A DNA stretch of 64,000 nt, from contig JBBQGV010000015.1 of assembly GCA_038323375.1 (NCBI GenBank), positions 974 to 64,973 of the forward strand. Direction: 5' to 3'. The notes beneath the pieces are model-generated. The model was not told the origin of the DNA. It made no database searches and saw only the letters and a list, made by a program, of their open reading frames with translations. This document shows, in pieces, positions 39,161 through 63,898 of the stretch (the stretch's first letter is position 1; the number at the start of each line of letters is the position of its first letter). The position numbers and the translations under genes were made by a program. Source of the stretch: Chitinophagales bacterium. Its GTDB lineage: Bacteria; Bacteroidota; Bacteroidia; Chitinophagales; Saprospiraceae.

Positions 39161-39322
39161 TATTCCGAATACAGTCGCATCATCTACAGGGGTTGTGTAA
39201 GAGGAGGCTGACTCATAAGGCAAGTTGCCACTTATGAGACCCCTTCTTTACACAACCACCTGCTCCTTGTTTTTGGCTCACCCTGAAAGCTTTTTTTATC
39301 TTTTTCTGAAAGTTTCAAAGGA

Positions 39323-40400
39323 TTGCTTATGTTAGTGTCCGCATTTTCACCGGAAAACATCATTCGGATGCTTAGTTTGAGGGAATTGTTCAGGTTTGGT
39401 TTGCGACAGCCTTCGCGCAGCGACTGGTTTGTCACGTTAGCCTATTGGATAGGTGCCTCGCCTTTTATCCTGAGCAGTTATCTTGGTGACAGCCCTTTCT
39501 TACAGGCCATCGGTGGGATGGTGTTTACCATTCTTTTCGATACTACGTCCGTATTTATCCTGGTCTTCGGCATTTTTGCCACGTACATTCCAAGGCGACA
39601 ATACTTAGCTTTATTGGTGGCTACTGTTGCGCTGTTTGCCGTCAATTCATTAGTTTACAATTACGGCTACGGCATCATTTTTGGGTGGGAATACCGGTCG
39701 CCAAGTTTCGAGTTATTGCTTTGGGGGGTGCTGCGGCATGCCCAGAGTTACGGCATCCTGGCAGCCATCATGATCGGAAAGCAGTTTTTCGACATCCAGA
39801 AGCAGTTTTTTGAGTTGGAAAAAGAGAAGCGCGAGAATGAACTAAAAATGCTCAAGTCGCAGATTGACCCGCATTTTTTTGTTCAACAACCTCAATATCC
39901 TGGATGTCCTGATCGAACGCGATCCGGCGGCAGCCCGGGTTTATCTCAACCACCTGGCTTCCCTTTACCGCTACCTCATCCGGCACAAAGACGAAGAAGT
40001 AGTGTCGCTGTACGACGAGTAGGCTTTCGCTAAAGACTATATTTACTTGTTGCAACAACGCTTTGGAGACGCCTTCAAGTTTGATCTTCAGGGCAATGCC
40101 GCTGATATGCAGACCTTTTTTATTCCGCCCGGCGCCATGCAAACGGTTATTGAAAACGTCGTCAAACACAATGAGGGCGACGATCATCAGCCCATCATGG
40201 TGTCTATTTTGTTGGAAAATGACGCAATTCTGGTGCGCAATACACTGCGACCAAAATTGGAAAGCGCCGAAAGCAATGGTACAGGCTTAGCCAACCTGCA
40301 GGCGCGTTATCGTTTATTAGTTGATCAAACCCCCGATATCCGGCGCGACAACGGCGAATTCGCTGTGCGTTTGCCGCTGATCCGGGGCGTAAAAGCCTGA
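39323..40400 (+). pseudogene. LytS/YehU-type sensor histidine kinase, inactivated by a T7 homopolymer frameshift and an in-frame TAG
   Basis: A multi-TM N-terminus is followed by LKSQIDPHF. After the T run at 39874-39880 the expected LFNNLNILDVLIE reads in the +1 frame. A TAG at 40020-40022 then precedes the HATPase part (ORF 40047-40400). Confidence 0.7.
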
Positions 40401-40405
40401 ACCGT

Positions 40406-41176
40406 ATGCGCGTATTTATCCTGGAGGATGAAGCGCTTGCCGCACAACGACTGATGGAATTCATCCGGATTGCACATCCGGATGCCCAGATTGTGGGGTG
40501 GGAAAAAACAATCCGGCAGGGCATGTTATGGCTGCAACAAAATGAGGAACCCGACCTCCTGTTTTCCGACATTGAACTGCTGGACGGCAATGTATTCCGA
40601 CTCTATGAGGCGCACCGTGTCAATTGTCCCGTCATTTTCACCACCGCTTACGACCAGTTTCTCCTTCAGGCTTTTCAAGTCAACGGCATTGCTTACCTGC
40701 TAAAGCCTTACGATCTGGAACAGTTCAAACAGGCCATTGCTAAATACAACCGCTTATTTGGCACTCCCACAGCGCCGGTGCTGACAGAAGCGGTGCTGGC
40801 ACAACTGAAGCAGGCTTTCCAGCCCGCGTTTGCACAATACAAGCAGCGCTTCACCGTGCGCATGGGCGGCGGCATTTATCTCCTGAATACCGAAGACATT
40901 CAATGCTTTACTGCTGAGGACAAATTGGTGCTGGCCTGCACCGCCGAAGGCAAACGCTACCCGCTCAACCAAACAATTGCTGAATTAGAAGGTATGCTTG
41001 ACCCGCGTCGTTTTTTTAAAATCAACCGCGGCGACATCGTCAACATCATAGCCATTCGGAAAATTGAACCCCATTTTAACGACCGGCTGGCAGTTACAGT
41101 GGTGGGGATTCCAAGTTTTTTGGTAACGAGCGCAGCACGCACGTCGGAGTTTCGGAAGTGGCTGGAGGAGGGTTAG
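40406..41176 (+). CDS. LytR/AlgR-family response regulator (receiver + LytTR DNA-binding domain)
   Basis: 256-aa ORF. Receiver (ILEDE...LLFSDIELLDG...KP) and LytTR (FFKINRGDIVNI). Confidence 0.9.
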   Translation: MRVFILEDEALAAQRLMEFIRIAHPDAQIVGWEKTIRQGMLWLQQNEEPDLLFSDIELLDGNVFRLYEAHRVNCPVIFTTAYDQFLLQAFQVNGIAYLLKPYDLEQFKQAIAKYNRLFGTPTAPVLTEAVLAQLKQAFQPAFAQYKQRFTVRMGGGIYLLNTEDIQCFTAEDKLVLACTAEGKRYPLNQTIAELEGMLDPRRFFKINRGDIVNIIAIRKIEPHFNDRLAVTVVGIPSFLVTSAARTSEFRKWLEEG

Positions 41177-45216: not shown

Positions 45217-45217
45217 A

Positions 45218-45486
45218 CGCTTTGTTTCGCGGGCTTCGTTTCGCACGCTTCGTTTCGCACGCTTTGTTTCGCACGCTTTGTTTCGCGGGCTTCAGTCCGC
45301 TTTGTTCCACACGCTTTGTTTCGCGGGCTTCAGTCCGCTTTGTTTCGCACGCTTTGTTTCGCGGGCTTTGTTTCGCGGGCTTCAGTCCGCTTTGTTTCGC
45401 ACGCTTCGTTTCGCACGCTTTGTTTCGCGGGCTTCAGTCCGCTTTGTTTCGCACGCTTCGTTTCGCACGCTTCAGTCCGCTTTGTT
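45218..45486. repeat. degenerate 12-14-nt tandem array built from REP-2 half-sites (GCTTYGTTTCGCRS / GCTTCAGTCCGC), minus orientation
   Basis: About 20 consecutive units begin 2 nt upstream of the Roc-CHAT start codon. Confidence 0.8.
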
Positions 45487-49220: not shown

Positions 49221-50137
49221 ATGCTGCTTCAATTTTCAGTTCGGAATTTTAGAACCTTCAAAGACAAAGCCTCTTTGAGCCTGATTGCTTCTAATTATGA
49301 CAAAGAGACTAGAGCAAGGGATTAGTTAGGAATAATGCCTTGTTACTCTCCGTTGCTGCGCAATTTAATGATAACATTTCCGAAAACGTTATTACCTGGT
49401 TTAACAGCTTAAAAACCATTTCAGGGCTAAGGGAAGAAGAGTATCAAGGCTATACAATGAATAGAACTCAAGATTCCCAATACAAAGATAAAATACTTGA
49501 TTTGCTTAAGTTCGCAGACATAGGGATTCATGATATAAAGCTCAAAATGCTTAATATTGATCAACTCCCCAAAGATATGCCCGATGAATTAAAACAATTA
49601 TTAACCAAAATAGCCAGAGAAAATGAAACTGAAATTTTTTCTGATATTTTAACTTCCCATAAAAAATTTGATGGATCAAAAAAATATGTCGGAGATACTA
49701 TATTGTCTTTAATTGACGATGAATCCTCCGGTACACGAAAATTTTTTGCTTTAACAGGGCTTATTTTAGACTCTATTGAAAACGGGCATACCTTAATTGT
49801 TGATGAACTGGATGCCAAACTGCATCCAAATTTAGTCTGTGAGATTGTTGCTCTTTTCAACTCTGGAAAATCCAATGCCAATAATGCACAACTCATTTTC
49901 AATACGCACGATACGAATCTCTTAAGCTCAGGTTTATTTAGGAGAGACCAAATCTGGTTTACAGAAAAAGATAAATTTGGAGCAGCAAAGTTGTATTCCA
50001 TGGCAGATTTTAAATCTGATGAGGTAAGGAAAAATGAAGCATTTGAGGAAACCTACCTTAGAGGAAAATATGGAGCTGTTCCTTTTTTGACGCACTTTGA
50101 TGAATTGACACTACAGAAACCTATTCCTGCAAAATGA
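49221..50137 (+). pseudogene. AAA_21-type ATPase (RloA/abortive-infection-like) with an internal deletion removing the Walker A region
   Basis: 49221-49325 encodes MLLQFSVRNFRTFKDKASLSLIASNYDKE... and then stops. ORF 49340-50137 carries the distal half (DESSGTRKFF, Walker B LIVDELDAKLHP, IFNTHD, RRDQIWFTEKD). No GxxGxGKS is present. Confidence 0.65.
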
Positions 50138-50987: not shown

Positions 50988-51881
50988 ATGATACCGAACT
51001 TCAATTTTCAAAAAAAGAGACTGACGCTGCCTGATCAAACGACCGTGGCTTACTTAGATACCGGGCACGATGCGGCTAAGCCTACCCTCGTCATGGTGCA
51101 TGGCTTAGGCAACAATGCTTCTGTTTGGCTCAGGCTGATGGCGCAAATTCAGGGTCAGTACCGCTGTATTGCCTTAGATTTGCCTGCTCATGGAGATTCG
51201 CAAGCCTGCACCCAAGCGTGTGGAATTAATTATTTTTCAGCAACCGTTGAGGGTCTTATTGAAGGCTTACAATTAGGCCAGGTGATGCTCATGGGCCACT
51301 CTATGGGTGGGTTGGTTTCGATCAAAACTATTTTGCGAAAGCCCACAGTCGTCAAGCAGTGCATTTTACTTGCCCCTGCTGGTTTTGAAACCTTTACGCT
51401 CAAGGAAAAAGCCTGGTTAAAAGCCATTTATGCGGTATGGATGCTCAAAAAGATGAGTGCAGCACGTATGGAACAGCAAACCAGAGAAAGTTTTTTCCGA
51501 TTCCCGCCTGATTTTGAGTTTGCCGTACAGGAAATTATCGCCATTCGCGAATCTCCGGAGGCATTCGAGGCGTACTGCGAAACGCTGTCTTTGTGCATGA
51601 ACAGCCTGCTTAATGAGTCGGTTTTTGATACCCTTTCCACCATTAGTCTGCCGTGCACTGTATTTTTTGGCATAGAAGACCTGACCATTCCCAACAAAGT
51701 CCTTCATCCGAACCTCACAGCCATCGAAGTAGCCGAGCAGGGGACGCGGAAAATTCCCAATGCCACCCTGCACTTGATTCCTGAATGCGGCCATACCCTC
51801 CAATGGGAGGCAGCTGATCAGATTGCTGATTTTTTACTAAATTTGGTTAGCTACTCTTCTTCCGCAGGTTCCGGACGCTGA
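50988..51881 (+). CDS. alpha/beta-fold hydrolase
   Basis: 297-aa ORF. HGLGNN oxyanion region, GHSMGG nucleophile elbow and a C-terminal CGH. Confidence 0.85.
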   Translation: MIPNFNFQKKRLTLPDQTTVAYLDTGHDAAKPTLVMVHGLGNNASVWLRLMAQIQGQYRCIALDLPAHGDSQACTQACGINYFSATVEGLIEGLQLGQVMLMGHSMGGLVSIKTILRKPTVVKQCILLAPAGFETFTLKEKAWLKAIYAVWMLKKMSAARMEQQTRESFFRFPPDFEFAVQEIIAIRESPEAFEAYCETLSLCMNSLLNESVFDTLSTISLPCTVFFGIEDLTIPNKVLHPNLTAIEVAEQGTRKIPNATLHLIPECGHTLQWEAADQIADFLLNLVSYSSSAGSGR

Positions 51882-53052
51882 CCTCTTCCCAAGAACGGCA
51901 ACCGGCTAATCCCAGGGTCAGGTCAATGTCTGCCAACAAATTCGTGATGACCTCGCGAACGCCTGCTTCCCCGCCTACCGCCAGCGCTAAGGCATAAGGC
52001 CGTGCCACCAGTACCGCCTTTGCGCCTAAGGCCATCGCTTTGAATACGTCTGCGCCACGTCGGATGCCGCTGTCGAACAAGACGGTCAGTTCATCCCCGA
52101 CGGCATTGGCAATTTCCGGCAATACCACCAATGAGCCTACCGCACCATCTACCTGCCTTCCGCCATGATTGGAAACTACGATGCCATCCACGCCATAATC
52201 CAACGCTTTTCGGGCATCGTCTATGTGCTGAATGCCTTTGAGTATGATGGGCATCCGGGTGCAATTCCGGATAACGGACAAGTCGTTCCAAGTTAGGCCC
52301 GGCCCGGTAAATACCTTCGTAAAATGGCGGATGGCTTTGAATTTATTTTGCTCAGGGTCGCCGCCTACGGCCTCCCGGAATACCGGATCGCCGAAGTAAT
52401 TGGCCAAGCCGTGGCCGTGCAAAAATGGCAGGTATCCCAGCTGAATATCACGTTCGCGCCAAGCCAAAACCGGGGTATCAAGAGTCACCACTAAGGCCGA
52501 ATACCCGGCCTCTTCTGCCCTCCGAATGACACTCCTTGTAAAATCGTGGTCGCGCCCCCAATACAACTGAAACCAATGTGGGTTTTCTGCGTTTTCCCGG
52601 GCGATGTCTTCCATAGGCATAGATGACACGTTGCTAACCACTTGTGGCACCTTCATGGAACGCGCAGCACGGGCAACCGCCAATTCAGCTTCCGGGTGTG
52701 CAATGGACAATACACCTACCGGCCCGAGTAATAAGGGAGAAGGCAAGCGCTGTCCAAACAGTGTAACGCCCATATCTGCATTAGAAATATCCACCAACAT
52801 ACGTGGCACAATTTGCCAATCATCCAGCGCCTCCTGATTGTTGCGCATAGTTGTTTCCCCGCCAGCGCCGCCTGCAATGTAGGCAAAGGCTTCGGGTGTC
52901 ATTTTTTCCGAGGCTTCTTGAAGTAAGTCTTCATAAGAAACCGGAAATTTATTTTTCCGGTTGAACAGGCCATTCAGGTAAATGTGCATCTGTCGCTCTA
53001 CACCAAAGGAAGGGCGCTCCATTTGTAAGGTATCACCGGTTCTATTTTTCAT
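51847..53052 (-). CDS. FMN-dependent alpha-hydroxy-acid oxidase/dehydrogenase (lactate oxidase/LldD-like)
   Basis: 401-aa ORF with VVSNHGGRQVDG, ILKGI and DSGIRRGADVFKA motifs. Confidence 0.85.
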   Translation of the reverse strand: MKNRTGDTLQMERPSFGVERQMHIYLNGLFNRKNKFPVSYEDLLQEASEKMTPEAFAYIAGGAGGETTMRNNQEALDDWQIVPRMLVDISNADMGVTLFGQRLPSPLLLGPVGVLSIAHPEAELAVARAARSMKVPQVVSNVSSMPMEDIARENAENPHWFQLYWGRDHDFTRSVIRRAEEAGYSALVVTLDTPVLAWRERDIQLGYLPFLHGHGLANYFGDPVFREAVGGDPEQNKFKAIRHFTKVFTGPGLTWNDLSVIRNCTRMPIILKGIQHIDDARKALDYGVDGIVVSNHGGRQVDGAVGSLVVLPEIANAVGDELTVLFDSGIRRGADVFKAMALGAKAVLVARPYALALAVGGEAGVREVITNLLADIDLTLGLAGCRSWEEVSVRNLRKKSS

Positions 53053-53054
53053 AA

Positions 53055-54347
53055 TTAAAATAGTTTATTTAAATAAAAAACTGCCTGAATAAAATTAATT
53101 TCTAATTGATCAAAATGGTATCGTTTGCCTCCTGTTTGCTCGTTTTGCAGCGTGAGGCCGGGGAAATAGCGAACATTGGTGCGCAGTAAAAAGGATTGGA
53201 GGCGATTGGGGCGGATGTCCCATCCAAAAATATACCCCAATTTCCACTGGTCTTCTTTAGCCTGAAAAGCGGTGCCAGGGTTTAGTGCATCCCCGCCAAT
53301 GGCCTCCAACCGTTCCCAGCCCGGGCTTATTCCAATAAAAGGAACAAACCCCTTGTAATCAAACAAAGATTTGCAAAGGTCTAATGACAAGGCTTTGCGG
53401 CGAAACTCCAGCGTACTGCCATAAGCGCTAATTTCACTGTTGATGCTCCGGTAAGACAGGTTGAGGTGCGCGTCTAATTTGTGGTGATAATAGCCTGCGC
53501 CCCATTCTATAAAAACATTCCCCCCCCTGTGTCGGCCCATATAAGGTGCTACATCGGTTGATTCCTTCAGGAAAAAAGTAGAAGAAACGCCCACTGCTGC
53601 TGAAAAGGTATTGAGTTTACCTGCTTTCCCGAGGCGATCCTCCAGCTCTTTGGTACGGCCATTGAGCAAGTCTTCTTCTGCCGAAACCGTCGTGTCCAGT
53701 AAATAACGGTATCCTATTCTGAATTGAAGTGGGGGCAAACGGAGTGTCGAGGCAGCAACCCGATCGAAATAATAAGTAGCCTTGTTGTTGTACATCCACG
53801 TGGCTGACAATTCAAAATAGTGCTTTTTATTGGCAATGGTGCTTACCCCGGCATGAATTGGGTAGCTCACTTTATTGTAATTGGAGCCGTCGTCGCTTTT
53901 GTCGTCTGTTTTACCGAGGTATCTAAAATTCAACGAATTGAAAGACATGCCCACAAAAGGGCTAATTTTTGCGGTATAAGGCGTTTTCCACAAAAAATAT
54001 CGGAAACCGGTTTCTGTGCCGGTAGCATAATCCGTTGTTCGTGTGCCTGATTGCAAATTGAGGATGGGAATGTTGATAAAAAAATCCACTTTCCCCCAAA
54101 AATGCATACCGGAAATATTCAGGTGCGTCGCCGAACGCGGTGCAAAAGAAAGTTTGTCAGGCTCGCTGCCTGCCACACCCGACACCTTCGTTTCCCATGC
54201 GGGGGCATATCCGGTATAGATCCCGAAGCCACTCTGGGCAAAACGGTGTTGGGTTTTAGGAGAAATAACCTCCGAGTTTTCTTGTCCAATGATTATGGTA
54301 TTGGACACAAACAGCAGGCAGCAGAGCGAGACAAATAGACGCATCAT
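53055..54347 (-). CDS. outer-membrane beta-barrel protein, function unknown
   Basis: 430-aa ORF with a signal peptide, alternating aromatic/hydrophilic strands and a terminal ...YLNKLF. It starts 8 nt after the KS-like gene and ends 2 nt before the oxidase gene. Confidence 0.55.
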   Translation of the reverse strand: MMRLFVSLCCLLFVSNTIIIGQENSEVISPKTQHRFAQSGFGIYTGYAPAWETKVSGVAGSEPDKLSFAPRSATHLNISGMHFWGKVDFFINIPILNLQSGTRTTDYATGTETGFRYFLWKTPYTAKISPFVGMSFNSLNFRYLGKTDDKSDDGSNYNKVSYPIHAGVSTIANKKHYFELSATWMYNNKATYYFDRVAASTLRLPPLQFRIGYRYLLDTTVSAEEDLLNGRTKELEDRLGKAGKLNTFSAAVGVSSTFFLKESTDVAPYMGRHRGGNVFIEWGAGYYHHKLDAHLNLSYRSINSEISAYGSTLEFRRKALSLDLCKSLFDYKGFVPFIGISPGWERLEAIGGDALNPGTAFQAKEDQWKLGYIFGWDIRPNRLQSFLLRTNVRYFPGLTLQNEQTGGKRYHFDQLEINFIQAVFYLNKLF

Positions 54348-55626: not shown

Positions 55627-56112
55627 TTAGCTAGGTTTGGTAAGGTGAACGGTAATATTTCCTTTAGCGACTACTTCGTTTTGTGCATCCAGTACTTTTC
55701 CGTCATATACCGAAAAGTCCATGAATTTTTGCTTAATGAATACAACTATTGTAAGCTCTGAATTCGGAAAAACCGGTTTAACAAAGGTGGTTTTATCAAT
55801 TTTAATGGCCCGGCCCATCATTTTTTTATCCGATATATTTTCTCCCGATGCAGTACCGATCTGGTTTTCGATCATTTCCATCCGGCCAAAAAGACCGCAT
55901 GTTTGGAACATCATTTCTACCAGAATAACCCCCGGCAGCATGGGATAACCCGGAAAATGGCCCTTAAAAAAAGGCATGTCGGCGTTTACCTGTGTTTTGG
56001 CGGTGAGCGAGACACCGGGTTCGTAGCTTACAATTTCGTCCACCAGCAACATGGGTGGGCGGTGTGGCAATAAAGTTGCCGGTTTGGGAAAAGTCAAGGT
56101 ATTCGTACTCAT
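55627..56112 (-). CDS. FabZ/FabA-like 3-hydroxyacyl-ACP dehydratase (hot-dog fold)
   Basis: 161-aa ORF with HFPGYPMLPGVILVEMMFQ. Confidence 0.8.
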   Translation of the reverse strand: MSTNTLTFPKPATLLPHRPPMLLVDEIVSYEPGVSLTAKTQVNADMPFFKGHFPGYPMLPGVILVEMMFQTCGLFGRMEMIENQIGTASGENISDKKMMGRAIKIDKTTFVKPVFPNSELTIVVFIKQKFMDFSVYDGKVLDAQNEVVAKGNITVHLTKPS

Positions 56113-56885
56113 ATTGTTTGTAATATTTTTGTAGATACTGAAATTTGATCTAATATAGAACGAGACAAATCTGCTTCTGAAAAATGTCGAACATCCATTA
56201 AAAATTGATTTTTACTGGCTACCCAGCATAAATAATCCCTGTCTATTTGTACCGATTTAAGTATGTATTCCTTGCGGCTGGTCAAGGCTGCGTCCATATC
56301 CCGAAGCCCTTTGCCCGAGCATTTCACCTGTGCTTCTAATGCTGTCCAGTCTTCTATGTTGATGGAATCTGCGTGCGTAGTCAGCCCTTTGACGGCTTGT
56401 CCGAAGCGCAAAAAACTGCTTCGGTCTTTTTTGCACTGTACGTCAATGCCTACAATGCCTTCGTAGTTGATGGCACAAGCAATCAAATCCCGGGAATGAG
56501 ACAGGTTAAAGTCAAAATCCCCTACCCGGATAAATGGCCGTCCAAGTGCATCGTATTGCATCGGAAAACTGGCAGGCGATGCATCGGGATATACTTCGCG
56601 GAGGCCTTCGTACACCAACAATTTACTCAGGATCGATTTTAGCCGGTCAGCATGTTTTAAGTAGCGACTCCACCGATTCCGGATGGCTTCCGGAAACAAA
56701 GTCGCGTATGCCAGTAACAGATCCTGAAAAGAATTACTTTTTTCATAATAAGCATAACATAATAAATTCGCCAAAGGTAACTTGCCGTTGCTCTTCAATG
56801 AGTGCCGTACAATTGGCAAGAGACCGGTGCTTGTCGCGAAATACCTGAACGAAGTCTTTCTGTACAATTTCTGAATATTCTGCAA
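56109..56885 (-). CDS. Sfp-type 4'-phosphopantetheinyl transferase
   Basis: 258-aa ORF. FNLSHSRDL, GIDVQ, WTALEAQVKCSGKG. It overlaps the dehydratase start by 4 nt. Confidence 0.75.
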   Translation of the reverse strand: MQNIQKLYRKTSFRYFATSTGLLPIVRHSLKSNGKLPLANLLCYAYYEKSNSFQDLLLAYATLFPEAIRNRWSRYLKHADRLKSILSKLLVYEGLREVYPDASPASFPMQYDALGRPFIRVGDFDFNLSHSRDLIACAINYEGIVGIDVQCKKDRSSFLRFGQAVKGLTTHADSINIEDWTALEAQVKCSGKGLRDMDAALTSRKEYILKSVQIDRDYLCWVASKNQFLMDVRHFSEADLSRSILDQISVSTKILQTI

Positions 56886-56915
56886 GTTTGTAGCTATAAG
56901 TATCCATTGATCTAT

Positions 56916-58127
56916 CTATTTATGAATTTCCAAAACGCCTATATTCAGTAGGTCTCTAATAAAAATTGATTCAAAGCCTTCTTCTTCCATCTCTTGTTTG
57001 AGCTTTATTGACATTTTAAAAAGGCTTTTAAAGCAAGGCTCTGTCAGTTGAAAACACTGGTATGTGCGCTTGTTCAATAAAAAACAGTCATTTTCAATCA
57101 TAAATAAGCCAAAATTGGTTTTATTAAACTTCAATTGGGTATTAGCTGGTAAATCTGCATAATTAGCGGTGCTAATGTCTCGGGTAGTACTCACTTCCGG
57201 CGGTAAATATTTGTGCAGATAAAGCCATGTTTCCCATTGATCGTAGTATTGTATCAGATATTTTTCCAGCTCACTGTATAACTTGCGGGTTACTTCCGGG
57301 ATGTATTCTTTGGGAGCTCCGGCCCACTCTTTGGGGTCTATTTTAGGCAAAAGCAAGACTTTTGGAGGTTTTCTTTCCTCATCCGGATAATAAGAAATCA
57401 CGGGAATAATCGGGCGTTTGTTCATCCAGGAAATGGCTGCAATCCCTTTTCGGGAATTGATTTCCTGGCCAAAAAATGGAATTCTTAAATGAAACTGTTC
57501 TGACTTGTGGAAAATACCGCCCCCACCAGTATTGCCGTCAATGTAGGCAATAATGGATTTGCCTTCATAAAGGCATTTTGAAAGCGTCATGGCAATATTA
57601 GGCGACTCTGCGTTCAAAAGATCAAAAAACGCAGTTACTCCAAATGCTTTGTGTATCTCGGCCACCTTTTTCCGGATGCTGTCTCCCTGACGATGGTAGG
57701 TGTTTTCATCTACAATCAAAACAAAATCAAGACCTTTACTTGCCACAATGCCGATAACCGACCGATAAGACCCCAGGTGGTAGGTACAAATAACCGCCGG
57801 GAAATTTTCGGGTGCTAAAGCAGCTTCTGCACCGACTACGTCCAAGCGGTCAATTAATTCCGGCATCCCGGTTTCTTCATTGAGCAGGGCACGGCCGTAA
57901 AGCAGCTTCAAATAAATATCTTCGTATGCTGACGCTGGTATGTGGGGCAAAAATCGTTCCAGATTTGCCGTCAGAAATGTAAAATCCTTTAGTTGTAGCT
58001 GATCGAATTTCCGCTGTTCCCGCAATTGGATTTCTTGCCTCAACCCTTTGTAGCTCTCCACGTGTGGAAGGACGTTCGGGCTTTTATTTGAACCAGATTG
58101 AAATACAGGTATCGTTTCGACTGTCAT
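56916..58127 (-). CDS. LpxL/HtrB-type (lipid A biosynthesis-like) acyltransferase with an extra C-terminal domain of about 90 aa
   Basis: 403-aa ORF. YHLGSY (Hx4-type motif), a FFGQEINSRKGIAAISWMNKRPIIPV block and QWETWLYLHKY. The tail (FGLFMIENDCFLLNKRTYQCFQLTEP...FIRDLLNIGVLE) resembles a PqqD-like peptide-binding fold. Judged by eye. Confidence 0.55.
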   Translation of the reverse strand: MTVETIPVFQSGSNKSPNVLPHVESYKGLRQEIQLREQRKFDQLQLKDFTFLTANLERFLPHIPASAYEDIYLKLLYGRALLNEETGMPELIDRLDVVGAEAALAPENFPAVICTYHLGSYRSVIGIVASKGLDFVLIVDENTYHRQGDSIRKKVAEIHKAFGVTAFFDLLNAESPNIAMTLSKCLYEGKSIIAYIDGNTGGGGIFHKSEQFHLRIPFFGQEINSRKGIAAISWMNKRPIIPVISYYPDEERKPPKVLLLPKIDPKEWAGAPKEYIPEVTRKLYSELEKYLIQYYDQWETWLYLHKYLPPEVSTTRDISTANYADLPANTQLKFNKTNFGLFMIENDCFLLNKRTYQCFQLTEPCFKSLFKMSIKLKQEMEEEGFESIFIRDLLNIGVLEIHK

Positions 58128-58141
58128 ACGTATTGCTATTT

Positions 58142-59443
58142 TTAATTTAAAACTTCCGTAGCCAACTGCTCTCTTCCTACCTCCTCGCAGTTAAAATTAT
58201 TGAGTGTAAAAAGATTAATGATGTTCAATATCAGCTCAACAGAGGTTTGCATAGTACGATCCTGCATATCCATATCCGGGTTCACCTCAACCAGGTCAAT
58301 GCCAATGATTCGGCGGTCCGTCAGCACCAATTGCAGCAGTTGAATCAGCTCCGAAAGATCCAGGCCATTGGCAACGGGGGTAGCGGTAGCAGGCGCAACA
58401 ACAGGATCTAGTACATCAATGTCAATGGTCAAATAGACTTGTGCGTCCATTGGAATGAAAGACAAGTCGAGTTCATCATGGATGGATTTTTTCAGGTCGC
58501 TGCACCAGAAAACATGCTGTTTCGAATTATGGGGCCGCCCCATGAGGTTAAATATCCCCCTGATTCCCATCTGATAAATGCCTTTTACTTTCGAAATTTC
58601 GAGGCACCGGCTGGCAAAATTGCCGTGATGGTGTACTTTTTCAGCGTGATTAAGACTGTCATACTTAGAGGTATAGGTATCCGTATGGGCGTCCATGTGT
58701 ACGATGTAAATGTCATCAAACACCGCCGATGCAGCTTTTACAATCGGATAGGTTACAGAGTGGTCGCCTCCAAGAAAAAACGGAATATTCCCTTGTTGGA
58801 AAATCTGGAGCGCTGTTTTTTCTATTTTCCGGTAGATATAGGATTTAGATTCGTGGATGCTGACAAATAAATTGCCCAGATCTTTGATTAAATCCTTTTG
58901 CAAAAGTTCGAAAAAACAAGAGTTACTTGAGTCAATGCCTACCGCTTCAAGGCTGTAATTCCCAGCGCTTGCTGCATCTAAGTGCAACTTGTATTCGTTG
59001 GTGTACTCCCGGAGTTTTTCCGGAAAATGCGCACAGCCCACTGATTTGGGATTGCCCCCGCCATAAGGAATTCCGACAAAGCATAAATTGGCAAAATGCG
59101 GGTTTGTTTCGTCGTTCAATCCAAAAAGCGTATGTTTTAGTCTTGTCAGTATAACGAGCTGGTCTTCGAGAATGTCATTCTGAAATACGAGCCCGCGACT
59201 TACAAAAGAAGACAATGCTTGTTGTAGATCACCTGTGGGGTACTGTGGGAAAGCGGCCATAAGACCTTCAAACGTTTTGGGGATTTCCAGAAACCGCAAA
59301 ATGCTCATTGCTGTTTCTTTTACCTGAAATACCTTCCCCGACAGGGTGTTGTACAATTTATGTGCTGCATCTTCTCCTTTTTCGCGCTCTATGAGCAAGT
59401 AAGGCGAAATGATGTAGTTGGTAATTACTTTATTGTTTTCCAT
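58142..59443 (-). CDS. arginase/agmatinase-family ureohydrolase fused to an N-terminal PqqD/RRE-like domain (candidate peptide arginase)
   Basis: 433-aa ORF. C-terminal GGDHSVTYP, HMDAHTD, TIDIDVLDP and DLVEVNP Mn-binding motifs. The N-terminal 90 aa (LYNTLSGKVFQVKETAMSILRFLEIPKTFEGLM...LSSFVSRGLV) are RRE-like. Confidence 0.8.
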   Translation of the reverse strand: MENNKVITNYIISPYLLIEREKGEDAAHKLYNTLSGKVFQVKETAMSILRFLEIPKTFEGLMAAFPQYPTGDLQQALSSFVSRGLVFQNDILEDQLVILTRLKHTLFGLNDETNPHFANLCFVGIPYGGGNPKSVGCAHFPEKLREYTNEYKLHLDAASAGNYSLEAVGIDSSNSCFFELLQKDLIKDLGNLFVSIHESKSYIYRKIEKTALQIFQQGNIPFFLGGDHSVTYPIVKAASAVFDDIYIVHMDAHTDTYTSKYDSLNHAEKVHHHGNFASRCLEISKVKGIYQMGIRGIFNLMGRPHNSKQHVFWCSDLKKSIHDELDLSFIPMDAQVYLTIDIDVLDPVVAPATATPVANGLDLSELIQLLQLVLTDRRIIGIDLVEVNPDMDMQDRTMQTSVELILNIINLFTLNNFNCEEVGREQLATEVLN

Positions 59444-60731
59444 CGCGTCTATTTCTTATCAGGTTTTTAATACTATTCCGCACAATGCCTGAATTATGTT
59501 GATAACGCTTGTAAAAAATAAATGAGAATATGGTCGTAGCAAGTGCTGTTTTTCCCATTGATTCAATGGCACAGACAGAAAAATCGAGCTGATAAATGTT
59601 GTAAAAAACTTGTTTCCATGCATAAAATGCTTGTCCGATAAATTTGATAACGACATAAGCAATATATCCCCAAAATACGTAGCTGCAAATAGAATAAATT
59701 GCCAAAAAAGGGTTCTTTACATTCACTAACTGCCGCGTTCTTTCAGAAACCTGGAATGGCAGGCTGGGAAAAATGCGCTTTAGGAACAAAGTCCACCAAG
59801 CATCTGACTGCAACCGCAGGTTCGGAAGCTTAAATAAATCGCTATAAATCCAGTAGCCGTCAAACCGGAAGAAGGGGTTAAAATTAATGAATATGGTTAC
59901 TGTATTGATAACGATCAGACTCCTGAGTATACTGATGGTTTCCATATCGTAGGAGTTTTTAACCCAGTAAATCAACCCAAGATTAATCAATAACTGGAAA
60001 AATATTCCTCCAAAATTCACAATAATGCGTTTGAGGCGGCTGAGTTTCCAGGTTTCAGTTACATCCGTATATAATACTGGAAAAATAAAATAGAAGCCAA
60101 AACCGATACTTTTGGGTGGCGCTTTGAACAAGTATGAGGAGGCCGCATGCCCCAGTTCATGGATAAAAAGAATGAAAATTGCTACCGGGTAATAGATAAA
60201 AATATGCCCCAAATTTTTTAGGCACTCGGTACCCGAACTGGCAAATGTCCCGCCGGCTGCCGCTGCATCGTTGTATTGCGAAAATTGCTGGATATAATAA
60301 TAATTCAAACCCGCACCCGCCAACAGAAGCGTAAAAAAAGGTATCGGATAAAAAAAGTATTTCAGTATTTCAAGGAGCCATTTAAGCTGCTCAAACCGAA
60401 AAACATCCCAATGGCCAGTAAACCCGGACAGCATTCTGTCGGTTTTGTTTTTTTCCAGGCTTTCATCGTGTATGACCTCACCTGCTTCATTAAATATTTT
60501 AAGAGGTTTAATTTTTTCTTCGATAATTTGGGCAACGGTTTCTTCTGTAAATTCATATTGACCACGAGACCAGTTGTTTAGGCTAACCGTAATTTCCGGT
60601 TTTGTCTTTTTCTCTGTCAGTTGATCTATGATGATACGCAACAATTCTCCTATGTAATAATTGGTGCCATTGATCTGCAACAGGTACTGTTTATTGTCGT
60701 TACCGGTTTCTACTTCTTGTATGGTGTACAT
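59430..60731 (-). CDS. polytopic membrane zinc metalloprotease (M50/site-2-protease-like, HELGH)
   Basis: 433-aa ORF with multiple TM helices and HELGHAASSY inside a helix. Its soluble N-terminal domain of about 110 aa could bind peptide. Confidence 0.65.
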   Translation of the reverse strand: MYTIQEVETGNDNKQYLLQINGTNYYIGELLRIIIDQLTEKKTKPEITVSLNNWSRGQYEFTEETVAQIIEEKIKPLKIFNEAGEVIHDESLEKNKTDRMLSGFTGHWDVFRFEQLKWLLEILKYFFYPIPFFTLLLAGAGLNYYYIQQFSQYNDAAAAGGTFASSGTECLKNLGHIFIYYPVAIFILFIHELGHAASSYLFKAPPKSIGFGFYFIFPVLYTDVTETWKLSRLKRIIVNFGGIFFQLLINLGLIYWVKNSYDMETISILRSLIVINTVTIFINFNPFFRFDGYWIYSDLFKLPNLRLQSDAWWTLFLKRIFPSLPFQVSERTRQLVNVKNPFLAIYSICSYVFWGYIAYVVIKFIGQAFYAWKQVFYNIYQLDFSVCAIESMGKTALATTIFSFIFYKRYQHNSGIVRNSIKNLIRNRRDGKQ

Positions 60732-60939: not shown

Positions 60940-61080
60940 CTATCCAGCTGCGGGTGGCGCGGCGGGTGTTTTCACTGTGTTGCCACTGCAGCGTGCGGTA
61001 TCCACAGCCGCTACCGTCATTTCAAAACGGCCTTCCAATTCAACTACGGACAATGCATCTTTGATTTCAAAATTGTTCAT
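60940..61080 (-). CDS. candidate RiPP precursor peptide, 46 aa (variant core)
   Basis: Manual translation: MNNFEIKDALSVVELEGRFEMTVAAVDTARCSGNTVKTPAAPPAAG. It shares the conserved 31-aa N-terminal region with the three genes at 61752-62308. Confidence 0.6.
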   Translation of the reverse strand: MNNFEIKDALSVVELEGRFEMTVAAVDTARCSGNTVKTPAAPPAAG

Positions 61081-61161
61081 AATAAGTAAATTTTGGTAAT
61101 TAGAAAATTAGAAAATAAAAATCTCAGTCATTAGCAGTAAACAAAAGTCGGTCATACTAAG

Positions 61162-61323
61162 GGTCGCTGAAATAATAACTGTTCACTTTTCCAGGAGGTC
61201 TTTTGCTCCTACTCTGCGTTGGAGAACCACCTCCCTTAGCTATGGCTAAGGTCGGGAACCCCCGCCTCGGTTAGCCACAAAATGCCTTGCCTGGCAAAAG
61301 CGACACTTGTTAATTCAGCGCCC
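61162..61323. mobile_element. MITE-B copy 1 (162 bp), TIR GGTCGCTGAAATAATAAC / GGGCGCTGAATTAACAAG, TSD CTAAG
   Basis: CTAAG occurs at 61157-61161 and 61324-61328. It is near-identical in length and sequence to copy 2. Confidence 0.75.
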
Positions 61324-61473
61324 CTAAGGAATCAAACAGGATAAAGATGTATTTACCAGATCCATTCTATTGATGTGTATCATTTATAAGTTAGATACCA
61401 TTCGTGAGTTGCCAATCGGTTACAAGTATCTTTATTCCTGCTTTTTTCAGCAATTACTGGCTGTACTTTTCAA

Positions 61474-61574
61474 TTAGTTAGCCAAGGTCCTGGACTCATC
61501 GGAAACCGATTTGTTGATCTTGCTGTCGTTGCAACGTGCAGTATCCACGGCAGCTACGGTCAGTTCAAAACGAT
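61474..61574 (-). pseudogene. 5'-truncated precursor-peptide gene
   Basis: It encodes only ...RFELTVAAVDTARCNDSKINKSVSDESRTLAN. The N-terminal half and spacer are replaced by the junction ...AAAACGAT|ATAATTACGCTTAG next to MITE-B copy 2. Confidence 0.6.
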
Positions 61575-61588
61575 ATAATTACGCTTAG

Positions 61589-61750
61589 GGTCACTGAAAT
61601 AATAACTGTCCACTTTTCCAGGAGACCTTTTGCGCCTACCCTTCATTGAAGAACCGCCTCCCTTAGCTTTGGCAAAGGTCGTGAACCCCCGCCTTGATTA
61701 GCCACAAAATGCCTTGCCTGGCAAAAGCGACACTTATTAATTCAGCGCCC
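61589..61750. mobile_element. MITE-B copy 2 (162 bp), TSD CTTAG
   Basis: CTTAG occurs at 61584-61588 and 61751-61755. The right-hand TSD overlaps the stop codon of the 61752-61898 precursor gene. Confidence 0.75.
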
Positions 61751-61751
61751 C

Positions 61752-61898
61752 TTAGTTGGCCTGAGCAGGTTCAGAAGAGGCCTTCACATCTGCTTTGTTG
61801 TCGTTGCAACGTGCAGTGTCTACAGCGGCTACGGTCAGTTCAAAACGATTTTCGAGTTCTACCACTGACAGGGCATCTTTAGTGTCAAAATTGCTCAT
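61752..61898 (-). CDS. candidate RiPP precursor peptide, 48 aa
   Basis: Manual translation: MSNFDTKDALSVVELENRFELTVAAVDTARCNDNKADVKASSEPAQAN. Confidence 0.65.
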   Translation of the reverse strand: MSNFDTKDALSVVELENRFELTVAAVDTARCNDNKADVKASSEPAQAN

Positions 61899-61956
61899 GA
61901 TAAAAAGATTGATTGATTAAAAAATAGAATTAAGAGACGGCTTAAAATAATTACGC

Positions 61957-62103
61957 TCAGTTGGCCTGAGCAGGCTCAGAAGAGACCTTCACATCTGCTT
62001 TGTTGTCGCTGCACCGTGCAGTGTCCACAGCGGCTACGGTCAGTTCAAAACGATTTTCGAGTTCTACCACTGACAGGGCATCCTTAGTGTCAAAATTGCT
62101 CAT
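61957..62103 (-). CDS. candidate RiPP precursor peptide, 48 aa
   Basis: Manual translation: MSNFDTKDALSVVELENRFELTVAAVDTARCSDNKADVKVSSEPAQAN. Confidence 0.65.
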   Translation of the reverse strand: MSNFDTKDALSVVELENRFELTVAAVDTARCSDNKADVKVSSEPAQAN

Positions 62104-62161
62104 GATAAAAAGATTGATTGGTTAAAAAATAGAATTAAGAAATGGCTCAAAATGATTACGC

Positions 62162-62308
62162 TTAGTTGGCTTGAGCAGGCTCAGAAGAAGCCTTCACATC
62201 TGCTTTGTTGCCATCGCAGCGCGCAGTATCAACAGCGGCCACGGTAAGTTCAAAACGCTCTTCGAGTTCTACTGAGGACAGCGCATCTTTGATTTGAAAA
62301 GTTGACAT
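62162..62308 (-). CDS. candidate RiPP precursor peptide, 48 aa
   Basis: Manual translation: MSTFQIKDALSSVELEERFELTVAAVDTARCDGNKADVKASSEPAQAN. Confidence 0.65.
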   Translation of the reverse strand: MSTFQIKDALSSVELEERFELTVAAVDTARCDGNKADVKASSEPAQAN

Positions 62309-62387: not shown

Positions 62388-62669
62388 TTAGTCTTCTGCT
62401 TCCACCAGCAGGTTGCGCTGAATCATCGCGCTCAGTGTCTCTACGTTCTGGAAGGATTCTTCGTTAAATTCCGTAGGAATGATTCCGAATTCTTCGCCGA
62501 GGCGGGTAGAGATTTCAAGGACAGCGAGGGAATCCTGAATAATTCCGGGATCTTCATCAGTCCCGAAAAACGGCGCATCGTTTTTGATGTCTGCTGCCGT
62601 AATGTCTTCCAATTCCAATACATCAATAATGCATTGTTTTACTTTTTCCTGAATTGCATTGAGTTCCAT
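62388..62669 (-). CDS. acyl carrier protein
   Basis: 93-aa acidic ORF with a DSL phosphopantetheine-attachment motif (IIQDSLAVLEI). Confidence 0.85.
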   Translation of the reverse strand: MELNAIQEKVKQCIIDVLELEDITAADIKNDAPFFGTDEDPGIIQDSLAVLEISTRLGEEFGIIPTEFNEESFQNVETLSAMIQRNLLVEAED

Positions 62670-62692: not shown

Positions 62693-63898
62693 TTAATTAA
62701 AATTTCTGATTGCTACCGAGGCCATATTCCCTGAAAACCCGAAGGAGTTGGACAGTGCCAGGTTAATTTTATAGTCAATGGCTTTTCCTTCTACCAACCG
62801 AATGTTATCAGGAGTGACAATGGACTCTTTCACGTTAATGGAAGGGGGGACGAAGTTTTTGTAAACCCCCAAAGTTGTAGCGACAAACTCTACACTGCCC
62901 GCTGCCCCCAGCGCATGACCAATCAGTGATTTGGTAGAGCTGACATACACCGGGTGCCCATCTACCAATTGTTCGATGGCCCTGATCTCCATCTTGTCGT
63001 TCGCCAGCGTAGCGGTACCGTGTGCATTGATATAATCTACCTGACTGGGCGTAGCACCGGACATTTTAAGTGCATTGAACATGGCCTGCTTGGCAAAAAT
63101 GCCATCCGGGTGAGGCGCTGTGGCGTGATAAGCTTCGTTGACAATCGAATATCCTGAAACTTCTGCCAGAATCGGCGCATTCCTTTTTTGAGCCGACTCC
63201 AGGCTTTCCATTACTACGTAGGCAGCAGCATCGCCAAGGTTCAAGCCATCCCGGCCTTTATCGAAGGGCTGGCAAGCACCTTTCGACAGGGCAAACAGCG
63301 AGTTAAATCCGCTGTAAGTCAGGTAAGTAAATATATCAACCCCACCTGCAATCATACAATCTACCCGGTTACTCCGGATCAGATCGAAGGCTCTTCCGAT
63401 CGAGTTGGTGCCCGAAGCACAAGCTGTGGAGATCGTAGATAATGGGCCGCGTATGCCAAAATGGGCTGCGATTCGGGAAGTGATATTGGGCGTGATGTGC
63501 AACAACAACGCATAATCCCGCTCTTCGCCTTTAATTTTGTTTTTCACCCAATCCATAAAGGGATAACTTCCTCCAACCGACGTGCCAAGACAAAGCCCCA
63601 CGCGTCTGGGATCGGTGCTACTCAAGTCTAAATTTGCCCTTTCAAGCGCCTCACCGATCGCCCGCACCGACAATTCGCCAAGGATCGTAACGTCTTTTTC
63701 ACGGGCCGCTTCGTAAATACCCTGGTCAATGGTACATCCCTGGCGGCTTCTGAAGAACTCGTCAGACAAGTCAAAGCGTTGAGTAGAAATGTCTTTGAGG
63801 CCAGATTTGCCTTCACGCAGGTTTTGTTCAAATTCATCCAGATTATTGCCGATGGAGCAAATGACGCCCAAACCGGTCACAACTACTTTAGATGCCAT
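62693..63898 (-). CDS. beta-ketoacyl-ACP synthase (FabF/KAS II-like), catalytically complete
   Basis: 401-aa ORF with the Cys-His-His triad context STACASGTNS, NAHGTATLAND and GHALGAAG. Confidence 0.9.
   Translation of the reverse strand: MASKVVVTGLGVICSIGNNLDEFEQNLREGKSGLKDISTQRFDLSDEFFRSRQGCTIDQGIYEAAREKDVTILGELSVRAIGEALERANLDLSSTDPRRVGLCLGTSVGGSYPFMDWVKNKIKGEERDYALLLHITPNITSRIAAHFGIRGPLSTISTACASGTNSIGRAFDLIRSNRVDCMIAGGVDIFTYLTYSGFNSLFALSKGACQPFDKGRDGLNLGDAAAYVVMESLESAQKRNAPILAEVSGYSIVNEAYHATAPHPDGIFAKQAMFNALKMSGATPSQVDYINAHGTATLANDKMEIRAIEQLVDGHPVYVSSTKSLIGHALGAAGSVEFVATTLGVYKNFVPPSINVKESIVTPDNIRLVEGKAIDYKINLALSNSFGFSGNMASVAIRNFN

Follow-up and report, generated by a model that had tools for sequence, protein, structure and literature searches.

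A divergent LpxL/PatA-fold acyltransferase with an RRE-like domain in a putative lipo-RiPP gene cluster of a Saprospiraceae bacterium

A stretch of 64,000 nucleotides from the genome of a Chitinophagales bacterium of the family Saprospiraceae (GenBank assembly GCA_038323375.1, contig JBBQGV010000015.1, positions 974 to 64,973), hereafter called the window, encodes on its minus strand (56916-58127) a protein of 403 amino acids that sequence analysis and structural modelling support as a divergent LpxL/PatA-fold acyltransferase joined to a domain resembling the RiPP recognition element (RRE), within a hybrid cluster of genes for a peptide synthesized ribosomally and modified post-translationally (RiPP) and for enzymes like those of fatty acid synthase (FAS). 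We consider it likely that this acyltransferase acylates the precursor peptides encoded in the same cluster, and hold the assignments of a specific acceptor and a specific donor with less confidence. Lipo-RiPP biosynthesis is known; the LpxL/PatA enzyme class is probably new to RiPPs, in a function that is predicted here. The literature searched contains no precedent for an acyltransferase of the LpxL type, or of the wider lysophospholipid acyltransferase (LPLAT) type, in RiPP biosynthesis, nor for a fusion of an RRE with an LPLAT, which is not proof of absence.

The acyltransferase gene and its invariant residues

The gene is intact, its start codon lies 14 nt past the stop codon of the upstream arginase gene, and homologues align with its product from residue 1 onward; the database entry that is 100% identical to it is a hypothetical protein of a Saprospiraceae metagenome-assembled genome (MAG). 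Conservation was scored over 50 members of a set of 62 homologues (275-431 aa, mostly about 340-431 aa), among which, at identities down to 22%, 11 residues are invariant: H117, S120, D197, G198, N199, G201, R226, G228, E299, W301 and Y303. A preliminary reading of the DNA from sequence alone had listed LpxL-type motifs in this protein; all of them are present between residues 116 and 301 and conserved in the family, and as family invariants they are evidently not the product of chance. For a charge relay with H117, the invariant D197 is the candidate partner. The gene, its motifs and its two domains are as follows.

56916-58127, minus strand: acyltransferase-RRE fusion gene; intact open reading frame (ORF) with ATG start, 403 aa
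57762-57782, minus strand: YHLGSYR, residues 116-122; H117, the predicted catalytic His, is invariant, and R122, at the position of the acid in HX4(D/E), is kept in at least 90%
57525-57545, minus strand: YIDGNTG block; D197, G198, N199 and G201 invariant; D197 falls on D200 in the LpxL block APDHD
57399-57476, minus strand: FFGQ...RKG...PIIPV block (FFGQ 218-221, RKG 226-228, PIIPV 239-243); R226 and G228 invariant, P239 in at least 90%; aligns with LpxL FAVEQAATTTG...LVPFVP
57225-57239, minus strand: QWETW, residues 297-301; E299 and W301 invariant; aligns with the LpxL PEQYMW..HRRFK C-terminal motif
57207-58067, minus strand: predicted LpxL/PatA-fold acyltransferase domain, residues ~21-307 (AlphaFold2, Foldseek, PF03279 in homologues, hhalign)
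56925-57137, minus strand: predicted RRE-like (PqqD-like winged helix) domain, residues 331-401 (AlphaFold2 and Foldseek), following a low-confidence linker at residues 308-330

Homology of the core to LpxL and PatA

Three independent routes through sequence and model leave the homology of residues ~21-307 to the LpxL/PatA acyltransferases well supported, and bear out the earlier assignment of the core to the LpxL/HtrB type. The first route is transitive: the Lip_A_acyltrans family PF03279 is matched by 36 of the 50 homologues when these are scanned singly at E<=0.01 (best E 7e-10), and a more distant relative, P0173, matches it at E 1.3e-21, above the gathering score, with the PlsC-type Acyltransferase family also above threshold; from these matches the acyltransferase appears to be a divergent offshoot of PF03279. 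The second is structural: an AlphaFold2 model of the full-length protein built on the family alignment (pLDDT 90.4, pTM 0.87) was matched by Foldseek to mycobacterial PatA (E 5e-12, TM-score 0.72 on the target) and to Acinetobacter LpxM (E 5e-11, TM-score 0.61 on the target), PatA and LpxM being the sole significant matches of this model in the PDB (E 5e-12 to 7e-11, probability 1.0). The third is profile-profile alignment by hhalign, in which the family is collinear with E. coli LpxL/LpxM/LpxP across 235 columns, at a nominal probability of 10.6% (E 0.003) that is low because the E. coli template consists of three sequences only; against LpxL as a single sequence, the C-terminal half alone is aligned, and the full length once LpxM and LpxP are added. 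The correspondences, family before LpxL, are NLxxxLP with NLELCFPE, H117 with the catalytic H132, D197 with D200, and QWExW..LHK with PEQYxW.HRRFK.

An N-terminal membrane anchor was not found: across the family, the median of the maximal 19-residue hydropathy in residues 1-100 is 0.60, versus 1.56 for the anchor of E. coli LpxL. A search of PDB sequences with the family profile returned designed TIM barrels, which were set aside as a spurious, repeated match of low-complexity character, and the same search with the PF03279-positive relative P0053 returned only noise.

The C-terminal tail

The tail of about 90 residues is kept in every full-length homologue. It had been described from the sequence as an extra C-terminal segment with a beta-beta-beta-helix-like pattern, and the model bears this out: residues 331-401 of the full-length model form four strands, three helices and a last strand, and the tail modelled alone together with 33 homologous tails (pLDDT 93.6) has the order beta-beta-beta-beta-alpha-alpha-alpha-beta. 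A structural check set beforehand, namely whether the tail has a peptide-binding fold, came out in favour of an RRE: the top Foldseek match of the isolated tail in the PDB is the lasso peptide RRE TbiB1 with bound leader (probability 1.00, TM-score 0.55-0.59), followed by other TbiB1 chains, the lasso B1 protein 6jx3, ThcOx, CteB and SuiB, with the winged-helix domain of NO66 interleaved among the RRE matches; TbiB1 is also matched by the full-length model (probability 0.99). A search of PDB sequences with the tail profile matched nothing, and the sole link to PqqD at the level of sequence is a sub-threshold match to PF05402 (E 0.011) in the tail of P0173. On the models, the tail adopts an RRE-like fold, for which leader binding is predicted.

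Two neighbouring enzymes, the arginase and an M50 protease described below, carry N-terminal regions of ~100 aa (58142-58480 and 60430-60731, respectively, both minus strand) that are homologous to each other (hhalign probability 95%, E 5e-8). The similarity of the tail to the N-domain of the arginase, proposed from the sequence alone, is real and in register, and is weak at the sequence level: the tail aligns with the arginase and M50 N-domains at E ~1e-3 each. Because the two N-domains are mutually homologous and weakly tail-like in register, all three maturases (acyltransferase, arginase and M50 protease) appear to carry a leader-binding-type module.

Precursor peptides and the candidate acceptor

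Four precursor-like ORFs of 46-48 aa and one truncated copy span positions 60940-62308, upstream of the acyltransferase gene.

62162-62308, minus strand: precursor copy 1, 48 aa; leader KDALSSVELEERFE, core ..TARC..
61957-62103, minus strand: precursor copy 2, member of a 205-bp tandem array
61752-61898, minus strand: precursor copy 3, member of the 205-bp tandem array
61474-61578, minus strand: fifth precursor remnant, 5'-truncated, ..RFELTVAAVDTARCNDSK.. (leader/core hidden Markov model E 8e-10)
60940-61080, minus strand: precursor copy 4, precursor-like ORF of 46 aa with a divergent C-terminus

The three upstream genes form the tandem array (61751-62290, 2.6 copies, 89% identity), and this array together with the truncated fifth copy implies that the precursor cassette was recently duplicated and has partly decayed. 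The leader is conserved in the window (..LSVVELExRFE..), and the sole arginine outside it sits in ..TARC... In ELExRFE-type loci that also encode the arginase, the residue before the first core cysteine is Arg in 54 of 63 precursors and Lys in 5 of 63; the metal motifs of the window arginase are intact, and the precursor carries one core Arg for it. The best candidate acceptor in the window cluster is thus probably an ornithine beside the cysteine. Since the enzyme bears a domain of leader-recognition type, we infer that it would act before leader removal, on a side chain over the N-terminus; the goadvionin mode, in which the N-terminus is acylated once the leader is gone, was considered and ruled out on account of this leader-binding-type domain. 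The proposal of a peptide N-acyltransferase made from the sequence alone stands in part: targeting to a peptide is supported by the RRE-like tail and by linkage to precursors, and the acylation itself may be of N, O or S type.

In relatives, the arginase and the acyltransferase are tied to each other (related loci carry the prefix L and proteins of relatives the prefix P). P0136 (L090 8001-10490, GCA_041392765.1) is a natural fusion of 829 aa, RRE-arginase plus acyltransferase-RRE, in a cluster of the same type, and adjoins ~8 tandem precursors ending in ..ADRCSGN.., in which ..ADRC.. holds the only core Arg. In L091 (1148-5737), a metagenomic contig of 53% GC, a gene for two acyltransferase-RRE units in tandem shares an overlap with the arginase gene upstream of it and is followed by an MNIO gene, that is, one for a RiPP enzyme of the MbnB/TglH/ChrH family; the double protein of this locus, P0173, and P0188 are 829-854 aa long and consist of two tandem acyltransferase-RRE units. 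The acyltransferase-RRE family may therefore include members outside Bacteroidota and work alongside RiPP chemistry of other kinds.

The gene cluster in the window

The acyltransferase gene is one of a co-directional minus-strand series that runs from a ketosynthase to an FMN-dependent dehydrogenase. Its position between the arginase fusion (58142-59443) and the phosphopantetheinyl transferase (56109-56885) had been recognized from the sequence alone, with a ligase gene remnant at 56764-56907 overlooked. The remaining genes of the cluster are as follows.

62693-63898, minus strand: FabF-like ketosynthase (KS; PF00109, PF02801), with the active-site Cys in ACASG
62388-62669, minus strand: dedicated acyl carrier protein (ACP; PF00550), DSL serine at residues 46-48; kept in related clusters
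59430-60731, minus strand: HExxH intramembrane metalloprotease (M50/daptide-like) with an RRE-like N-domain; NF041824 daptide_HExxH 1e-21, NF058609; HELGH at residue 191
58142-59443, minus strand: peptide arginase candidate with an N-terminal RRE-like domain; PF00491 2e-52 over residues 119-408; GGDHS, DAHTD and DIDVLD present
56764-56907, minus strand: remnant of an AMP-binding (acyl-AMP ligase-like) gene, first 48 codons; residues 1-48 of the L001 protein matched at 75% identity (tblastn)
56109-56885, minus strand: 4'-phosphopantetheinyl transferase (PPTase); PF22624, HetI/AcpT models
55627-56112, minus strand: FabA/FabZ-type dehydratase (DH); PF07977 6e-20; ApeP-like/ApeI-like matches in L001
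54356-55621, minus strand: second, divergent KS-like protein; weak scores for PF00109 and PF02801; adjoins DH in relatives too
53055-54347, minus strand: signal-peptide protein of 430 aa; no Pfam match, weak PorG match; kept in L001 and L007-L009
51847-53052, minus strand: FMN-dependent alpha-hydroxy-acid dehydrogenase family enzyme; PF01070 1e-125; kept in L001, L007 and L009
50988-51881, plus strand: alpha/beta hydrolase at the cluster edge; PF00561, PF12697; counterparts in L001 and L090

The HExxH/M50 protease is a probable leader peptidase. Assignment of the cluster to the daptide or epipeptide class through the matches of this protease was rejected, as the scores fall far below the equivalog cut-offs and the other genes of those pathways are absent. 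The divergent KS-like protein is a possible chain-length-factor partner of the KS, and the product of 53055-54347 is possibly an outer-membrane beta-barrel; the genes for this signal-peptide protein and the FMN-dependent dehydrogenase (51847-54347) are conserved at the cluster end in the closest relatives, L001 and L007-L009. The true start of the PPTase is probably downstream of the listed TTG, since the ORF as listed runs into the ligase remnant at its 5' end. Pfam scans found no GNAT domain in ten ORFs of the cluster or in L001, and no glycosyltransferase, LolA-like or MMPL/RND protein among the matches of cluster genes here and in L001, L002 and L090.

ACP, PPTase, the KS pair and DH flank the acyltransferase in the window and in ~16 relatives, and relatives add a ketoreductase (KR) and an acyl-AMP ligase to this FAS-like set. 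The acyl donor of LpxL and LpxM is acyl-ACP, and to this extent the attribution of acyl-ACP donors to the family from the sequence alone holds; PatA, the best structural match, was crystallized with an acyl-CoA analogue, and the fold leaves acyl-ACP versus acyl-CoA undecided. The neighbouring ACP, PPTase, KS, KS-like partner and DH are suggested by their gene content to supply a cluster-made acyl-ACP donor.

Elsewhere in the window, a protein of 972 aa with LRR-Roc-COR-CHAT architecture, in which a ROCO-type GTPase is joined to a CHAT domain of caspase-like type (42373-45291, minus strand), lies near an AAA_21/AbiEii-like ATPase (49340-50137); these genes may constitute a defence or signalling island unrelated to the acyltransferase.

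Distribution of the family and its related loci

A profile search over 1.84 billion representatives (clusters at 50% identity) yielded at least 527 representatives at E<=1e-30 and 2314 at E<=1e-3, with most matches extending through the tail. Relatives are encoded in 168 species-level genomes, the best 80 of which are, judged by their record titles, almost all from Bacteroidota, with one MAG labelled Thalassovita; among the taxa with relatives are Saprospiraceae, Chryseobacterium, Spirosoma, Runella, Larkinella, Niabella and Pedobacter. The cluster is complete in Chryseobacterium angstadtii KM, C. endalhagicum L7 and C. carnipullorum DSM 25581 (L016-L018). The surroundings of the gene were surveyed in 86 related loci, eleven of which were read gene by gene. 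The earlier reading had named orthologues in lipopolysaccharide (LPS) loci lacking peptides as a finding that would speak against it; instead, a small peptide ORF, Cys-containing in nearly all cases, stands beside the acyltransferase or in its cluster in 84 of 86 loci, the other two being a locus whose contig stops 5 kb downstream and a contig 3.5 kb long. No lipid A (lpx) genes were present in the eleven loci inspected gene by gene. Identification of the protein as a housekeeping LpxL was ruled out by the genomic context, the missing anchor and the tail.

The leader motif (L/I)x(V/I)xELExR(F/L/H/Q)E, as in the window, occurs in 26 loci, and other peptide families are encoded directly upstream of the acyltransferase in ~58 more: in ~50 Spirosomataceae loci a peptide of the form MKKQFxIK...CC or ..SC.. 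ends 1 nt before the acyltransferase reading frame, and smaller groups have ..SC..TPPLPPG or ..SSC.. peptides. Acyltransferase fusions beside arginase fusions, for which a search of other genomes had been proposed, were found in 16 of 86 loci; the HExxH/M50 protease co-occurs in 21 of 86 and the KS/DH set in ~16 of 86. AMP-binding and KR genes are present in the closest relatives, and FAS genes are missing from most loci, which have just the acyltransferase and a precursor.

A LytTR protein is encoded within 1.5 kb of the acyltransferase in 58 of 86 loci. Most of the family occurs, in L004-L005 and L021-L086, as minimal modules of a Cys-containing peptide, the acyltransferase and a LytTR regulator (e.g. 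L027 8585-11059; L005 9678-12982); in Spirosoma modules the LytTR protein is membrane-bound and divergently encoded, and in Niabella and Agriterribacter a histidine kinase and a LytTR response regulator are encoded directly downstream. This layout resembles peptide-pheromone cassettes. The tightness of this linkage to LytTR regulators across the family suggests that lipidated peptides for signalling could be the product of many members. The broader proposal, that the family comprises a large, undescribed group of leader-guided lipidation enzymes of LPLAT fold in Bacteroidota whose minimal modules could be acylated autoinducing-peptide (quorum-sensing) systems, is speculative, and we regard it as rather doubtful in this full form. 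In the Hymenobacter locus L003 a trio of outer-membrane protein, histidine kinase and LytTR protein directly flanks the precursor genes; in the window, the corresponding trio (37262-41176, plus strand), which consists of an outer-membrane protein of OMP_b-brl_3 type, an ORF of 248 aa without Pfam match and a LytTR response regulator, lies >10 kb away from the cluster, with unrelated genes between.

In five loci (L002, L010, L011, L023 and L024) the acyltransferase/FAS/precursor cluster adjoins class I lanthipeptide genes (LanB, a split LanB C-domain and LanC), and the precursors have Thr and Cys ~9 residues apart (..EMTAAAQEADRC..). Some products of these loci may be lipidated lanthipeptides.

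Proposed pathway

The gene content of the window is consistent with a pathway in which a soluble or peripheral acyltransferase of LpxL/PatA (LPLAT) fold has exchanged lipids for a ribosomal peptide as its target. Its C-terminal RRE-like domain would bind the conserved leader of the four precursors encoded upstream; the RRE-arginase would convert the single core Arg (..TARC..) to ornithine; with the leader still attached, an acyl chain would be transferred to a core side chain, likeliest the delta-amine of the ornithine beside the conserved Cys; and the RRE-bearing HExxH/M50 membrane protease would then cut off the leader. The chain would be donated by the cluster ACP, primed by the cluster PPTase, after synthesis by KS, the KS-like partner, DH and a KR encoded outside the window. 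What the analysis itself establishes is the core fold, the conserved His, the tail's RRE-like fold and, across the family, linkage to precursor peptides, arginase, protease and FAS-like genes; catalysis, acyl-ACP over acyl-CoA as donor, the acceptor atom and the order of steps are predictions.

Weighing of alternatives

Several observations weigh against this pathway. The 403-aa protein has no match in Pfam (E<=10), PF03279 included, or in NCBIfam (E<=1), and a search of PDB sequences (E<=10) gave only a chance-level match to an L-ribulose 3-epimerase (E 0.34); the resemblance to LpxL is invisible to direct profile searches, hence the recourse to transitive, structural and profile-profile evidence. 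The Foldseek E-values of the isolated tail are weak (best 0.02), as is usual for a domain of only 80 residues, and a Pfam scan of 33 isolated tails gave no match to PF05402 (PqqD), only scattered single matches. At the HX4(D/E) dyad, H117 falls on LpxL H132, but R122 stands where LpxL has E137, so that the catalytic machinery would be unlike that of LpxL/LpxM. In PatA the catalytic His reportedly pairs with a Glu outside the HX4D motif, and D197 could by analogy take this role. The LpxL/PatA enzymes characterized so far O-acylate hydroxyls, not amines. Most of the loci, about 60 of 86, lack the arginase; where it is missing, the equivalent site of the precursor is Ser-Cys or Cys-Cys, and a few ELExRFE-type precursors (L020, L022) have neither Cys nor any basic residue; ornithine is thus not the acceptor family-wide, because of the loci without arginase and the precursors without a basic residue. 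Lastly, some ~450 further codons of the ligase gene, intact in L001 (497 aa), L002 and L007-L011, are absent from the window, and with this gene reduced to 48 codons the window pathway may have lost its starter-loading step and be a partly decayed copy.

It is on the acceptor that an alternative has the most to draw upon: the chain might instead be transferred to the thiol of the conserved Cys (S-acylation) or to a Ser/Thr hydroxyl (O-acylation), with the arginase serving for charge tuning or for a later S-to-N acyl shift. Such an acceptor would agree with the O-acylation chemistry known of LpxL/PatA enzymes, with the scarcity of the arginase among the loci, and with the fact that Cys is the residue common to nearly all precursor types, being preceded by R/K in arginase loci and by S/C elsewhere. 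We nonetheless regard it as unlikely for the window cluster, since the P0136 fusion and the overlapping genes of L091 speak for a direct coupling between the arginase and acyltransferase steps, some precursors have Lys in place of Arg at the same site, just as Lys and Orn are alternative acceptors in selidamides (PMC13647313), and precursors in L020 and L022 have no Cys at all. Acylation of ornithine would remain the preferred reading of the window cluster.

Two further alternatives were weighed. The resemblance of KS, KS-like partner, ApeI/ApeP-like DH, KR and ACP to aryl polyene (APE) clusters, in which an LPLAT-type acyltransferase is proposed to join the chain to a lipid anchor (PMC8253772), together with the conserved possible outer-membrane protein that comes after the FAS genes, would fit an aryl-polyene/flexirubin-like lipid pathway, in which an ApeD-like transfer delivers the ACP-bound chain to a membrane lipid or glycolipid anchor and the peptide genes are an independent, adjacent cluster. 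We consider this very improbable: what unites the family is the peptide, not lipid genes, and most loci have no FAS genes; the RRE-like tail is kept throughout; the acyltransferase has no membrane anchor, the cluster has no LolA/MMPL/glycosyltransferase set, and the acyltransferase is found fused to a peptide arginase (P0136). There is similarly little chance that the acyltransferase domain is dead or repurposed, for instance serving the arginase and protease as a scaffold or chaperone that binds the leader, or working in reverse as an esterase/transacylase; the near-invariant Arg in place of the HX4(D/E) acid and the failure of direct profile searches to reach any acyltransferase family would accord with such a fate, but the 11 invariant residues cluster in four acyltransferase blocks, the catalytic His among them, and D197 in the equivalent block is invariant. 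Peptide acylation by an active enzyme remains the explanation that we favour.

Significance

Ribosomal lipopeptides are sought as genetically programmable alternatives to the lipopeptides of nonribosomal peptide synthetases (daptomycin, polymyxin). To our knowledge, every RiPP N-acyltransferase characterized so far is a GNAT. The only other route of RiPP lipidation in the literature retrieved co-opts the lipoprotein pathway (PMC13647313, PMC13056109). If the prediction is true, the window encodes a second, unrelated enzymatic route, with an RRE of its own and a custom acyl-ACP, and illustrates the recruitment of a membrane-lipid enzyme to peptide chemistry; it would also open a large family to mining, many of whose 168 species genomes belong to cultured bacteria (Chryseobacterium, Spirosoma, Runella, Larkinella, Niabella). 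Through its association with LytTR regulators, the family makes lipidated peptide signalling in Bacteroidota directly testable; if the minimal modules do specify acylated autoinducing peptides, they would be a Gram-negative counterpart of the modified-peptide pheromones of Agr/ComX type.

Comparison with known systems

LpxL/LpxM (HtrB/MsbB) and PatA (PF03279, LPLAT) share the fold of the window acyltransferase (Foldseek E ~1e-11), and LpxL/M and the window family have collinear blocks: NLxxxxP, the catalytic His, xDxD/DGN, FxG...G...P..PV and QY/QWxxW..H(K/R). Unlike LpxL/PatA, the window acyltransferase has Arg at His+5, no N-terminal anchor, an added RRE-like tail and a predicted peptide acceptor, and in the loci surveyed its family is never seen in an LPS or phosphatidylinositol mannoside context, adjoining precursor peptides instead. 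With the PqqD-like RREs, such as the lasso B1 proteins TbiB1 and TfuB1, the tail shares the beta3-alpha3 winged-helix topology, but not a sequence-level match to PqqD.

The nearest precedent for an LPLAT-type acyltransferase in a cluster resembling type II FAS or polyketide synthase (PKS) genes is ApeD of aryl polyene clusters, which likewise contain ApeI/ApeP-like dehydratases (PMC8253772). The APE-type set of KS, KS resembling a chain-length factor, DH, KR and ACP is found in the window cluster and relatives taken together. ApeD is proposed to acylate a lipid anchor, and has no RRE, precursor peptides, arginase or M50 protease near it.

Among lipo-RiPPs, the selidamides (kamptornamide, phaeornamide, nostolysamides) most resemble the window cluster in bringing together a precursor, a peptide arginase and an acyltransferase, and in a predicted acceptor, Orn derived from Arg, whose position can naturally be taken by Lys (PMC8784127; PMC13647313). 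The window cluster differs in having an LpxL/PatA-fold acyltransferase in place of the selidamide GNAT, an ELExRFE leader, and RRE-like domains on all three maturases; whereas selidamides draw on fatty acids of primary metabolism, it encodes its own ACP, KS, DH and PPTase, and it belongs to the phylum Bacteroidota. The pathways of selidamides, goadvionins, lipolanthines and lipoavitides all rely on GNAT acyltransferases (PMC8784127, PMC13647313). The last three share with the window cluster dedicated FAS/PKS machinery within the RiPP cluster and delivery of an ACP-bound chain to the peptide (PMC8784127; PMC13647313); in these the GNAT acts on the N-terminus after leader removal, whereas the window cluster would employ an LPLAT-fold enzyme with an RRE-like domain for leader-dependent acylation of a side chain.

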